In this document: one piece after another, positions 17,339 through 21,094 of the stretch
Position numbering within the stretch: position 1 is the stretch's first letter
How the letters are laid out: every line of letters starts with the position of its first letter
Assembly: GCA_963771885.1 (NCBI GenBank)
Contig: CAVYVF010000023.1
Coordinates: 64,001-128,000, forward strand
Length of the DNA stretch: 64,000 bases
Reading direction: 5' to 3'
DNA from: Candidatus Bathyarchaeota archaeon
GTDB lineage: Archaea; Thermoproteota; Bathyarchaeia; TCS64
The notes under the pieces: model-generated
The model's input: only the letters and a program-made list of their open reading frames with translations
Database searches by the model: none
Told to the model about the DNA's origin: nothing
Made by a program: the position numbers and the translations under genes

Positions 17339-18376
17339 CTACTTGGATATCTTCTCGAGGAAGGCCTTGACGAGTAGTATGGTGTTCTCTATGTCCTCGG
17401 TTGAGGTTATCGCGGCGGGACCGTGTATGTACCTGCAGGGAACAGCTATGGTGCCGCTGGGGACGCCACCCTTGGTCAGGTGGATGCTCCCCGCGTCGGT
17501 GCCGCCGCTAGGTATCTTCTTGAACTGGTAGGGGATCTTCCCCGCCTCGGCGGCGTCCACGATGGTCTTGAGGACCTTGGGGTGGACGATGACGCTGGAG
17601 TCGGCTATCGTGACGACGGGGCCCTTCTTGAGGGAGGCGGGTATCATGTGTGGCGCCATACCCGGCATGTCTACGGCGAATGTGCCCTCGAGGGCGAGGC
17701 CATAGTCGGGGTCCACCTGGTACGCGGCGGTCTTGGAGCCGCGGAGCCCGACCTCCTCCTGCACGGTGCCGACGGCGACGACATTGAGTTGGGAGCCCTT
17801 GAGCCACTTGAAGACCTCCGCTAGGACATAGCAGCCGGCGCGGTCGTCGAGCGCCTTTCCCCGGATGTAGCCCTCTCCGAGGTCGATGAACTCGACGTCG
17901 AAGACGCCGGTCATACCGACGTAGGCTCCCCGTTTCTCCGCCTCCTCTCGCGTACAGGTGCCTATGTCGACGAACAGGTCGTCGAGGACGACGGGCTTCT
18001 TCCTCTCCTCCTCGCTCATGATGTGGGGCGGCTTCGTGCCGACGACGCCCTTGAGGTCGGCTTTCTTGCCCCGGAATACTAGCCTCTGCCCGGGGAGTAG
18101 GTTAGGGACGACGCCCCATGAGTGGAGGCGGAGGTATCCCTGATCCTCTATGTGGCGGACGAGGAAGCCGACCTCGTCCATGTGGGCCGCGAGCATGATG
18201 AGTGGTTTCCCCTCCTTACACCTGTGGGTGAAGAGGATGTTGCCCAGCTTGTCGATCTGGGTCTCATCCGCGTAGCCCTCAAGCTCCGCCTTGAGTATCT
18301 CCCTCACCTCGTCCTCCGAGCCTGGAGGACCGTAGGCGTTCGACAGTCTCTCAAGAAGCGCCGTGTCCATACGCAT
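17339..18376 (-). CDS. M42 family aminopeptidase (TET-like)
   Basis: AAHMDEVG, KALDDRAG, QEEVGLRG, GGTDAG and RYIH motifs. Confidence 0.93.
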   Translation of the reverse strand: MRMDTALLERLSNAYGPPGSEDEVREILKAELEGYADETQIDKLGNILFTHRCKEGKPLIMLAAHMDEVGFLVRHIEDQGYLRLHSWGVVPNLLPGQRLVFRGKKADLKGVVGTKPPHIMSEEERKKPVVLDDLFVDIGTCTREEAEKRGAYVGMTGVFDVEFIDLGEGYIRGKALDDRAGCYVLAEVFKWLKGSQLNVVAVGTVQEEVGLRGSKTAAYQVDPDYGLALEGTFAVDMPGMAPHMIPASLKKGPVVTIADSSVIVHPKVLKTIVDAAEAGKIPYQFKKIPSGGTDAGSIHLTKGGVPSGTIAVPCRYIHGPAAITSTEDIENTILLVKAFLEKISK

Positions 18377-18481
18377 CGATTCCGATGACGCTGATGGGTG
18401 ATATAATACTTGAGAAAACCCGGCTAGAGCCTGGAATATTCTCTGGACGGCCTCGACGCTGCACGCGCTCAACAAGAGGGG

Positions 18482-18669: not shown

Positions 18670-19317
18670 CTAGACTTCGTACTTCGTCGGGTCGGGTATC
18701 CCCGCCTCTGCGAATGCCCTCTTCCTGTTGTTGCAGGACTCGCACTCTCCACAATGGGTAGGCCCCTGAAGGTAGCAGGACCACGTCTTCTCAAGAGGGA
18801 CTCCGAGTCTCACAGCTTCCCGGAGGACTCCGGATTTACGTAAATGGCTGAGGGGGGAAGTTATCGTGATGTCATTCGCTGTGCCGAGGCGCGCAGCCTT
18901 CTCGAACGCCTCGTAGAACTCTCTTCGGCAATCAGGGTAGAACTCCTCGTCCCCCGCATGGGCACCATATATGACGAGGTCGGCACCGATCCCGTCGGCG
19001 AACGCGACAGCTACGGATAGGAAAATTCCATTGCGGAAGGGCACGATGATCGGGTCGGTGAACGTGCCCGTGACCTCCATCTCCGCATCGACAAGACTCG
19101 TGACACCTTCATAGATGCCACTCAAGTTCCTGAGGTCGATGATCTTGTGGGGTATCTTCAGTATCCTAGTGATCTCGGTAGCATGCTCTATCTCGACCTG
19201 CGCCTTCTGGCTGTAGTTGAACGTGAGGGCGTGGACCTCGTAGTTCTTCTCCCTCGCCCAGTAGGCGGCGGTTACTGAGTCTGGTCCCCCGCTGAGTATG
19301 ATGACACATTTCCTCAT
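18670..19317 (-). CDS. queC: 7-cyano-7-deazaguanine (preQ0) synthase
   Basis: SGGPDS, VPFRNGIF, YPDCR and TWSCY...HCGECESC..R motifs. Confidence 0.95.
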   Translation of the reverse strand: MRKCVIILSGGPDSVTAAYWAREKNYEVHALTFNYSQKAQVEIEHATEITRILKIPHKIIDLRNLSGIYEGVTSLVDAEMEVTGTFTDPIIVPFRNGIFLSVAVAFADGIGADLVIYGAHAGDEEFYPDCRREFYEAFEKAARLGTANDITITSPLSHLRKSGVLREAVRLGVPLEKTWSCYLQGPTHCGECESCNNRKRAFAEAGIPDPTKYEV

Positions 19318-19319
19318 TT

Positions 19320-19787
19320 CTACCACTTCATCCTCCGCTCAAGCACCGTAAATATTCCCGCTCCCAGGACGTTGATTATGAGCTCGCTTGCCAGTAACCC
19401 AGGAAGAGTCAACCCGACAGGTAGACTGAACAGCTGCAACAGCATCCACGAAACGCATACCGGGATGATGATGGCAATGATCAGCCCGCAGGTCCAGTAG
19501 CTTCCCCCGAAGCGCTTCGCTACCTCGTAGCCGATGAGCCCCGCGGCGAGGCTCGCAACAGGCATGAAGAGGAGCTCGTAGATACCCGCGAAGGGGCTCA
19601 TGAGGTTACCAACGACGACGCCGATGGCGTAGCCTACTGCTAGCACCCTCATCCGGGCTATCCCGGGCCTGACGACGCCGGCGAGCCTGAACTGAAGTAC
19701 ACCGAAGCTTATCGGCGAGAAGACGATGACGAGCGACGCGTAGAGCGCCGCATAAACAGCTACTAGGGATAGTTCTCTCGTGTTCAA
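19320..19787 (-). CDS. queT: QueT family (queuosine precursor) transporter
   Basis: MNTREL..AVYAALY...PISFGVLQFRL...GVVVGNLMSP; TTG start at 19787 with GGAGG 10 nt upstream; directly precedes queC. Confidence 0.85.
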   Translation of the reverse strand: MNTRELSLVAVYAALYASLVIVFSPISFGVLQFRLAGVVRPGIARMRVLAVGYAIGVVVGNLMSPFAGIYELLFMPVASLAAGLIGYEVAKRFGGSYWTCGLIIAIIIPVCVSWMLLQLFSLPVGLTLPGLLASELIINVLGAGIFTVLERRMKW

Positions 19788-19857
19788 CGCTTTTTTGCCT
19801 CCCTCCACCGGGATTTCTAAGGCGGAGTCGGGTGGGAGGCCCCACTCACCCGCCGAC
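19788..19857 (-). promoter_or_regulatory. Structured 5' leader of queT-queC, candidate preQ-class riboswitch (pseudoknot)
   Basis: Helices CGGGUG/CACCCG, GCCUCC/GGAGGC (covering the SD) and CUCCGCC/GGUGGAG; AAAGG-TTATAT promoter at 19889-19879. Confidence 0.6.
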
Positions 19858-19972
19858 AGGAGCCAACATGCACCTGAGATATAACCTTTCCCAGAGGAGG
19901 CACCCAAAGCCCGAATGGGACAGTATTTAACTCACCCGATGTTAGAGAAGGGAGAAAGTATCGGGATCCGCC

Positions 19973-21094
19973 ATGAAGTTCAGCAAGCTCGCCATCAGTA
20001 AGGAGCTTAAGAAGGGGCTCAAGGAGATCGGCTTTGACGACATGTTCCCCATACAGGAGAAGGCGATCCCGCCCATGCTCGAGGGAAAAGATGTAATAGG
20101 TCAAGCGAAGACGGGCACCGGCAAGACCGCCGCCTTCGGCGTCCCCATGATACAACTCCTCGAACCCGAGAAGCATCTCGTCCAAGGACTCGTTCTCGCT
20201 CCCACCCGTGAACTTGCGCAGCAGATAACCGAGGACATAAACGACTTCGCCAAGTATACGCAGGTCCGCGCTACAGCTGTCTACGGCGGAGTCTCAATCG
20301 ACAAGCAGTTTATTGAGCTCAAGAGGGGTCCCGCCATCGTCGTCGGCACCCCGGGGAGGATCATCGACCACCTCAACCGCGGCACCCTCAGCCTCCACAA
20401 CATCAAGATGCTCGTACTCGACGAGGCAGACAACATGCTCGACATGGGCTTCGTCGAAGACATCGAGTACATCCTCAAACGCACACCGAAAACCAAGCAG
20501 GTAAGCCTCTGGAGCGCCACAATCGACGACCGCACCATGAACATAAGCAGCCGATACATGCACGACGCTGAATTCGTCAACGTAAGCCGCGACGAGATAG
20601 GCGTCTCCAACATCAAGCAGCACTACATACTCTGCAACGAGCATGAGAAGGAGGAGACTCTTAAGCGCATCATCGACTTCTACAAGATTGAACGCTGCAT
20701 CATCTTCTGTAGGATGAAGATAGGCGTCGACGATTTATACGCTATGCTTAGTAGATCCGGATACAGCGCCGAGGCGATACACGGTAACTTCACCCAGGCG
20801 CGGCGCCAGCAGGTGCTCGACGGCTTCAAGCAGGGGAAGTTCAGTATAATGATAGCCACCGAGCTCGCGGCGAGGGGACTCGACATCGAGGACGTGCCGT
20901 GGATAATCAACTACGACATCCCGATGGATCCGAATATGTACTTCCACCGCGTAGGCAGGACGGCGCGCGCCGGGAAAGCGGGGAACGCGATAACGCTCGT
21001 CACGCCCGAGGAGGAGATCGAGCTTGAGAGGATCAAAGCGATGACCAAGATCCCCATATACAAGCTGACGCTGCCCCCCAGTTTCCTCTTCTAA
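19973..21094 (+). CDS. DEAD-box RNA helicase
   Basis: Q motif, AKTGTGKT, PTRELA, TPGR, DEAD, SAT, ARGLD and HRVGRTAR motifs. Confidence 0.96.
   Translation: MKFSKLAISKELKKGLKEIGFDDMFPIQEKAIPPMLEGKDVIGQAKTGTGKTAAFGVPMIQLLEPEKHLVQGLVLAPTRELAQQITEDINDFAKYTQVRATAVYGGVSIDKQFIELKRGPAIVVGTPGRIIDHLNRGTLSLHNIKMLVLDEADNMLDMGFVEDIEYILKRTPKTKQVSLWSATIDDRTMNISSRYMHDAEFVNVSRDEIGVSNIKQHYILCNEHEKEETLKRIIDFYKIERCIIFCRMKIGVDDLYAMLSRSGYSAEAIHGNFTQARRQQVLDGFKQGKFSIMIATELAARGLDIEDVPWIINYDIPMDPNMYFHRVGRTARAGKAGNAITLVTPEEEIELERIKAMTKIPIYKLTLPPSFLF

Follow-up and report, generated by a model that had tools for sequence, protein, structure and literature searches.

According to a 2024 review of the preQ1 riboswitch family (PMC11625349), preQ1 riboswitches upstream of bacterial queT genes work through pseudoknots that sequester the Shine-Dalgarno (SD) sequence, and the word archaea does not occur in that review. 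The pathway in question runs through QueD, then QueE, which gives 7-carboxy-7-deazaguanine (CDG), then QueC, which gives preQ0, and archaeal preQ0 enters tRNA and becomes archaeosine (PMC5372724). Here we describe the leader of a queT-queC operon on the minus strand of a 64,000-nt stretch of Candidatus Bathyarchaeota archaeon DNA (contig CAVYVF010000023.1, positions 64,001 to 128,000), which we call the window and whose coordinates are used throughout. A literature search at the level of listings and abstracts brought up no account of a queT or preQ0 riboswitch in archaea.

Judged by comparison with related leaders, the queT leader is one copy of a strongly conserved RNA, predicted to be knotted, that is present in many archaea. 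The results support its interpretation as an undescribed archaeal regulatory RNA of queT-queC, in which a loop would pair with the SD and which is tied to 7-deazaguanine genes. We further consider it probable (roughly 0.7) that the leader represents a new class of riboswitch which recognises a 7-deazaguanine (probably preQ0) and switches translation off in response. In the proposed mechanism, a pseudoknotted RNA of about 58 nt would occupy the 5' untranslated region (UTR) of the operon, with a helix P1 enclosing a hairpin P2 (GUGGG-GCCU-CCCAC), and the ligand would be a free 7-deazaguanine base, most plausibly preQ0, the product of QueC and substrate of the archaeal tRNA-guanine transglycosylase (TGT). 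Without ligand, P2 would hold the C-rich strand; the SD would then be accessible and both queT and queC would be translated. Ligand would stabilise the pseudoknot and hide the SD from the 30S subunit, so that translation would be off. Within this scheme, we infer ligand binding, ligand identity, the direction of the switch and the transcription start.

The structural evidence comes from alignment A5, which holds 143 distinct copies of the element and was made with MAFFT, which is structure-neutral. Seven rows were left out of it: one 15-bit match, five weak secondary or reverse-strand matches, and one copy cut by a contig end. Position i of the element corresponds to window coordinate 19855 - i. 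The features of the locus are:

19849-19854, minus strand: 5' strand of P1, GGCGGG (positions 1-6), pairing with 19826-19821
19846-19848, minus strand: junction J1/2, UGA, with U7 invariant and G8 nearly so (A5 columns); unpaired in every supported model
19841-19845, minus strand: 5' strand of P2 and putative anti-sequestor, GUGGG (G10-G14), pairing with 19836-19832
19834-19840, minus strand: 5' strand of the pseudoknot, GCCUCCC (G15-C21), complementary to 19803-19797
19827-19831, minus strand: junction J2/1, CCGAC (CCGU in most relatives), with C24 and G26 invariant (A5 columns)
19821-19826, minus strand: 3' strand of P1, UCCGCC (U29-C34), pairing with the P1 5' strand
19808-19820, minus strand: linker UUAGAAAUCCCGG, with the near-invariant AAAYCCCGG at 19816-19808 (A5 columns)
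19797-19803, minus strand: 3' strand of the pseudoknot, GGGAGGC (G52-C58), holding the SD GGAGG at 19802-19798; complementary to the 3' end of the organism's own 16S rRNA
19320-19787, minus strand: queT, energy-coupling factor (ECF) S-component of 155 residues with start codon TTG at 19787-19785 (PF06177, 58.6 bits, E 1.1e-15, residues 8-150)
18670-19326, minus strand: queC, 7-cyano-7-deazaguanine synthase, overlapping the end of queT (PF06508, 208.8 bits, E 8.6e-62)
19879-19889, minus strand: putative promoter, a B recognition element (BRE) and TATA box, AAAGG TTATAT (letters read; A+T peak in homologous leaders)

Direct reading of the minus strand from 19889 to 19785 gave AAAGG-TTATAT at 19889-19879, a G+C-rich block, GGAGG at 19802-19798, 10 nt before the queT start codon, and TTG at 19787. 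The order of segments is GUCGG CGGGUG AGUGGG GCCUCC CACCCG A CUCCGCC UUAGAAAUCCC GGUGGAG GGAGGC AAAAAAGCG UUG. A preliminary description of this DNA, made from the letters alone, had given the sequence and coordinates of the leader exactly (element at 19854-19797, TTG at 19787), and its naming of queT and queC downstream was confirmed by the PF06177 and PF06508 matches (58.6 and 208.8 bits). It had also proposed a covariation check on related leaders, and among the 143 sequences both conservation and covarying helices were found.

P1, the enclosing helix, is 99.3% paired in A5. Its pair 1-34 is GC in 103 sequences, AU in 18, GU in 8, UA in 5, CG in 3 and another combination in 6, thus including all four Watson-Crick types, while pair 5-30 is GC in 125 and CG in 18. 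The G6.U29 wobble is invariant (143/143), and the presence of G.U pairs makes the element strand-specific. P2 is 90.1% paired, with UA (116), GC (13), CG (3) and UG (2) at pair 11-22, and GC (112), GU (11), UA (2) and AU (1) at pair 10-23. When P1, the P2 core and the pseudoknot are taken together, 93.2% of the cells are paired, versus 84.8% after shuffling, and there are 177 double-change cells versus 56.4 in shuffled alignments, a count reached in none of 500 shuffles. Their covariation score is 0.272, versus at most 0.076 when the partners are slid by 1-3 columns. A mutual-information scan that assumed no structure had among its top pairs 5-30 and 1-34 of P1, 18-55, 21-52 and 19-54 of the pseudoknot, and 11-22 of P2.

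The pseudoknot from loop GCCUCC to GGAGGC, covering the SD, had been drawn in the preliminary description and is borne out by the comparison. Taking the best ungapped duplex for each sequence, we found 60 distinct duplexes in the 143 sequences, 132 of which have at least 6 bp. Several are far from the consensus, among them ACAUCUC:GAGAUGU, CCCUCU:AGAGGG, CACCUCC:GGAGGUG, CCUCGAC:GUUGGGG, GGUCCUUCCA:UGGAAGGAUC and the UCCUUCC-type:GGAAGGA; UCCGAC:GUCGGA forms a duplex without SD character. In a control with shuffled tails, a duplex score of 15 was reached in 29% of trials versus 92% for native tails.

The 16S rRNA of the same genome ends in ..GGAUCACCUCCU, and GGGAGGC is complementary to this 3' end. 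This makes GCCUCCC an internal anti-SD copy, with the SD itself lying within GGGAGGC. P2 and the pseudoknot compete for the C-rich strand: the pseudoknot 5' strand ends in the same three letters with which the P2 3' strand CCCAC (19836-19832, C19-C23) begins. The best fold of the region enclosed by P1 pairs at least two letters of the pseudoknot 5' strand in 130 of 139 parsable sequences (out of 143), and at least three in 93. For the window's own RNA, the calculated energies are -6.8 kcal/mol for the P2 hairpin, -17.9 for P1 with P2 and -15.2 for the pseudoknot duplex. In this arrangement, the 5' GUGGG would serve as a decoy that occupies the C-rich strand. The preliminary description had offered an alternative fold that would free the SD; its hairpin GUGGG-GCCU-CCCAC is the conserved P2, while the extension by GUCGG/CCGAC uses non-conserved letters. 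The leader has general features of a riboswitch, being a conserved structured 5' UTR element with covarying helices and conserved unpaired junction letters, and having an expression platform that overlaps the putative aptamer through the SD in the pseudoknot and the shared P2 letters.

The invariant unpaired letters in A5 are U7, C24, G26, A39-A41, C43-C45 and G46, and the mutual-information scan detected no partner for any of them. Together with G8 and the rest of AAAYCCCGG, such junction letters likely form a ligand pocket or tertiary contacts. Three candidate partners for CCCGG, none of which showed covariation, were rejected. A 3-bp helix C24C25G26:C45G46G47 consists of invariant letters throughout, and its GG is missing in a variant type of leader; a local CCC:GGG hairpin with the SD, found in the window's own minimum free energy (MFE) fold, is impossible in five members (L147, L098, L100, L133 and L116); and the third candidate was pairing with G12-G14. 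A possible extension of the pseudoknot by C23-G49 is C-G in 95 sequences and U-A in 6, but C-U in 17, with other combinations besides.

We searched 61 related genomes with QueT and found a match in 48, of which 13 were clear orthologues whose 5' ends are intact. In all 13 orthologous leaders, some 60 nt immediately before the start codon were near-identical, far beyond what chance would produce, and the flanks could not be aligned. A covariance model (R1) built from these 13 leaders, with 61 positions and 11 nested pairs, had a single match in the window's own 2.46-Mb genome (83 bits, E 1.3e-19). At E ≤ 0.1, R1 matched 95 of 151 sampled Bathyarchaeia genomes and 73 of the 94 high-quality ones, mostly with one copy each. 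Inspection of twelve of the weakest places revealed five real divergent copies before QueT and seven false matches. The latter, which score below about 21 bits (L232-L235 and L238-L240), lie in coding or unrelated regions, and the three of them put through Pfam (L232, L238 and L240) had no QueT downstream. As three genomes (G061, G083 and G161) had only a false match, their removal brings the class count to 92/151.

In a phylum-level Thermoproteota sample, R1 at E ≤ 0.001 matched 27 of 151 genomes, 15 of them not Bathyarchaeia, and it matched 10 of 151 genomes in an Asgard phylum sample, several on megabase contigs. A pattern scan with one genome per species yielded at least 118 stretches; among the matches listed, R1 scored at least 26 bits in 76 of 80 loci, and 53 of the listed records are labelled Bathyarchaeia or Bathyarchaeota. 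Other labels among the matches listed are Nitrososphaerales, Nitrososphaeria, Nitrososphaerota, Nitrosopumilales, Thaumarchaeota, Methanomethylicota, Thermoprotei, Promethearchaeota, Promethearchaeati and Hodarchaeota, and the motif-bearing records include one labelled Candidatus Bathyarchaeum tardum (L111) and one labelled Methanomethylicota (L109). Three bacterial pattern matches, in Faecousia, Bradyrhizobium and Gammaproteobacteria records, had no R1 match and were discarded, and one further listed match reached only 15 bits. Strong copies (68.7 and 59.3 bits) were also found in L165 and L171, records labelled as Methylomirabilota and Acidiferrales bacterial metagenome-assembled genomes, where the QueT that follows is 57-60% identical to Bathyarchaeia QueT; we suspect that these contigs are probably mis-binned archaeal DNA. 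An Rfam 15 scan of 19000-20600 with permissive filters at E ≤ 10 gave four chance-level matches elsewhere and none in the leader, and 12 diverse members scanned at E ≤ 1 gave no matches, preQ1-I/II/III (RF00522, RF01054 and RF02680) included. This agrees with the preliminary description, which had seen no resemblance of the primary sequence to the bacterial consensus.

Like preQ1 riboswitches, the element is located in leaders of 7-deazaguanine synthesis and transport genes. In 71 of 78 loci the first open reading frame (ORF) after the motif encodes QueT; 70 of these ORFs exceed the Pfam cut-off and one, which is shortened, falls below it. With automatic frame choice, the rest comprise one frame running into QueC, three membrane proteins of about 230 residues and three ORFs without assignment. 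QueT also follows all six divergent or second copies. Among 20 loci outside Bathyarchaeia, 15 are followed by QueT and five (L110, L116, L133, L135 and L159) by a radical SAM protein. For these five proteins, QueE models take all of the first five NCBIfam places; the matches mostly span nearly the full length and score 71-105 bits, which is below the equivalog cut-offs. In Asgard and other-class loci, QueT follows the motif in 14/14. The next gene after the first ORF encodes QueC in 12 of the 30 loci with 1.5 kb of downstream sequence. Since the Pfam cut-off is too lax for QueC and picks up PP-loop ATPases, only full-length matches with E ≤ 1e-40 were counted as QueC; by hand count, 28 of the 38 class genomes with a full-length QueC have it on the strand of the motif and no more than 1.2 kb downstream.

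Other genes were observed near the element. A membrane protein with DUF998 (PF06197) comes next after QueT in 9 of these 30 loci and after QueC in four more, one of them below the Pfam cut-off (13/30 in all: L035-L041, L045, L047, L048 and L052-L054), and DUF998 is a candidate for an unrecognised member of 7-deazaguanine salvage. In one Bathyarchaeia family, the membrane protein of about 230 residues replaces QueT (L051:1563-2258, L060:813-1499 and L068:207-917). It had no Pfam or NCBIfam match, and the Atlas clusters closest to it bear the name ECF transporter S component (score 0.94), which serves as a lead only. Distant QueT-like genes of one Bathyarchaeia family, f4 (L251, L253 and L254; genomes G039, G041 and G042) were set aside, as they have a tRNA gene directly upstream and no motif.

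The window's own genome, which is 92% complete, encodes one TGT (281.9 bits) as well as QueC and QueT, and neither QueD nor QueF was found in it. NCBIfam models for QueE gave only partial radical SAM matches of at most 35.7 bits there, and we read QueE as not found because archaeal QueE-like proteins score 71-105 bits. QueD was found in 13 of 151 class genomes; of the 92 motif carriers, 4 have it. From this census of QueD, QueF and QueE, most motif carriers probably depend on salvage of a 7-deazaguanine, and the class Bathyarchaeia looks largely dependent on salvaged 7-deazaguanines, so that controlling the importer by feedback would make sense. Where queC accompanies queT, CDG may be the base taken up, and elsewhere it may be preQ0 itself.

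We also looked at divergent forms of the element. The Asgard copy L266 is a minimal form, CGCGG-GUGG-CCCAU-CCG-UU-CCGCG ... AAACCCCGG-GUGGGAGG, without the P2 hairpin and with only P1 and a CCCAU:GUGGG pseudoknot; going by this copy, P2 is dispensable. A variant type of leader precedes QueT in two Bathyarchaeia families (L227, L229, L230 and L231 in genomes G084, G098, G066 and G102, respectively). It has GUGGUUGAC after P1, AUGACAUAAACCCC-AAAA-GGGAGG replaces AAAYCCCGG-NNNN, and the GG after CCCC is missing. Its pseudoknot duplexes include GCCCCC:GGGGGC and GCCCUCC:GGAGGGC, and its R1 score is only 20-27 bits.

A promoter is predicted 25-35 nt upstream of P1. In the window, TTATAT lies at -30 to -25 relative to P1. 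Among the leaders with 60 nt of upstream sequence (141/143), A+T content peaks at 0.75-0.89 at -35 to -28 from P1 and is about 0.55 elsewhere, and 61 of 86 TATA-like hexamers (T[TA]TA[TA][AT]) begin at -37 to -28. Given the TATA position and the usual archaeal promoter-to-start spacing, the transcript should start 1-5 nt before P1, near 19857, which would place the element at the predicted 5' end of the mRNA. The flanking genes look ordinary: a DEAD-box helicase (19973-21094, plus strand) diverges from the queT promoter region, and an M42 aminopeptidase (17339-18475, minus strand) lies downstream of queC.

Several observations weigh against the riboswitch interpretation or limit its reach. The folding energy of the window's own leader is ordinary (z = 0.06 for the MFE of a 96-nt stretch, a fold that also pairs letters upstream of the predicted start); with an ordinary energy and no Rfam match, the single sequence alone proves nothing. 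As the aligned sequences are related, the shuffle counts should not be read as probabilities. Some of the covariation that A5 shows for the pseudoknot is the same CCUCC:GGAGG pairing in a shifted register, which is why the best ungapped duplex was taken per sequence as well. Tails swapped between sequences match the native duplex score in 40% of trials, because the SD and anti-SD are common to all; mean duplex scores are 17.6 for native, 16.0 for swapped and 13.4 for shuffled tails, so the swap difference is modest. The mutual-information scan of A5 found no covarying partner for the invariant AAAYCCCGG. The minimal Asgard form, lacking P2, means that competition between P2 and the pseudoknot cannot be the whole mechanism. 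Two members (L098:151-215 and L100:991-1054) have GUCGGA or GUCGG as their pseudoknot tail, which does not resemble an SD, and they show no evident SD ahead of the start codon, so hiding of the SD may not be universal. Finally, four metatranscriptome runs yielded a contig of 151 nt that covers 19670-19815 with one mismatch, and another, from a relative, whose extent is exactly 19796-19854, which attest to presence in RNA libraries rather than to a transcript start; 19855-19910 was covered only at trace depth (0.04) in one run, with no start signal.

The same pseudoknot could serve as a riboswitch for another ligand, such as CDG (the QueC substrate, which a cell lacking QueD and QueE would need to import), 7-amido-7-deazaguanine (ADG), preQ1, the archaeosine base or guanine, which we regard as unlikely. 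The pairing of queT with queC in genomes without QueD does fit import of CDG and its conversion by QueC, and bacterial queT leaders sense preQ1 according to PMC11625349. However, preQ1 is not an expected metabolite here, as QueF was not found in the window's own genome. Moreover, the motif precedes queT in genomes without a full-length QueC (about 38/151 have QueC, against 92/151 with the motif) and also precedes queE, which leaves the end product preQ0 as the common denominator. It is quite unlikely that the leader is instead a site for a trans-acting macromolecule, namely a regulatory protein, the archaeal TGT or an unmodified tRNA, that drives the SD-hiding pseudoknot. The present analysis does not tell a small ligand apart from a partner that is protein or RNA, AAAYCCCGG, being invariant and single-stranded, could act as a recognition site, and the loop AGUGGG is like a tRNA D-loop, in letters only. 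Yet no conserved regulator gene travels with the element, and its sequence is kept across Thermoproteota and Asgard archaea, a range over which proteins co-evolving with it should have drifted. Riboswitches typically share its size, its pocket-like invariant junction and its association with both transport and synthesis genes.

We consider it very improbable that the leader is a constitutive structured 5' end without ligand, setting a fixed low level of translation, stabilising the mRNA or sensing temperature. Such a role would suit a pseudoknot predicted to be stronger than P2 in the window's own RNA, and a minimal form with P1 and the pseudoknot only, but a simple attenuator would have no need of some 20 letters that are both invariant and unpaired, or of an association with que genes alone across three phylum-level groups. 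The preliminary description had likened the leader to preQ1-II, with a P2 formed by CGGGUG/CACCCG, an inserted hairpin CUCCGCC/GGUGGAG and a P3 containing the SD. A divergent preQ1-II member would share the gene, queT, and the idea of pairing a hairpin loop with the SD; as drawn, it is refuted, and we give it hardly any credence. Apart from the absence of Rfam matches (E ≤ 10 for the leader, E ≤ 1 for the 12 diverse members), two of its three helices fail the covariation count. In CGGGUG/CACCCG, 0/6 pairs change on both sides, and C.C occurs in exactly the 18 sequences where P1 compensates. CUCCGCC/GGUGGAG is 70.6% paired, its middle pairs being unpaired in 103, 46 and 90 of the 143 sequences. 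These nested helices are favourable in the window's own RNA (-20.8 kcal/mol) and were rejected by the comparison, which revealed the enclosing P1 (GGCGGG/UCCGCC) that the proposed topology had missed.

To our knowledge, only a few riboswitch classes have been documented in archaea. If validated, the preQ0 riboswitch that we favour would represent a new RNA fold for 7-deazapurine recognition, and would demonstrate that riboswitches of Thermoproteota and Asgard archaea can act by sequestering the SD. It would also provide a sequence marker for salvage of preQ0 or archaeosine precursors in uncultured Bathyarchaeia, most of which are apparently unable to make the base de novo, and it flags DUF998 and the S-component-like protein of about 230 residues as candidate pathway members.

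Finally, we compared the element with the three known preQ1 classes. PreQ1-I is about 34 nt long, and the linker AUAUAAAC after P1 of the archaeal leader looks like what we take to be its A-rich tail. In PMC11625349, preQ1-I (RF00522, types 1-3) is described as a small H-type pseudoknot with a P1 of 5-6 bp followed by an A-rich linker. It controls queCDEF synthesis and transport genes and binds both preQ1 and preQ0. It is bacterial, about half the size of class II and without an internal hairpin, and it carries an AC/UC specificity motif before the P1 3' strand, whereas in the archaeal leader a U precedes P1. PreQ1-III (RF02680) is likewise found in queT 5' UTRs and forms an HLout pseudoknot, but it measures about 100 nt, has five pairing regions and places the SD/anti-SD helix far from the pocket (PMC11625349). 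It occurs in Ruminococcaceae and metagenomes, and the archaeal leader has no match to its model. PreQ1-II (RF01054; the COG4708 or queT motif of Streptococcaceae and Lactococcus) is also located in the queT 5' UTR, with an HLout pseudoknot in which loop pyrimidines pair with the SD, and it controls translation only (PMC11625349). It is confined to bacteria, in Bacillota only; it comprises four pairing regions, and its linker carries an inserted hairpin. The archaeal leader shares the loop-SD pairing, but lacks P2 as drawn and the inserted hairpin P4; unlike preQ1-II, its P1 encloses the loop-donating hairpin, no inserted hairpin is kept, and other letters are conserved. On balance, we lean towards viewing the element as the first archaeal riboswitch for a 7-deazaguanine and as the fourth class of this kind, structurally unrelated to the other three, selective for preQ0 over preQ1 and distributed in Bathyarchaeia, Nitrososphaeria, Methanomethylicia, Thermoprotei and Asgard archaea. 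In lineages mostly without QueD, it would govern salvage of preQ0 through queT, and possibly of CDG through queT-queC, with the anti-SD copy as sequestor and the GUGGG decoy as anti-sequestor.

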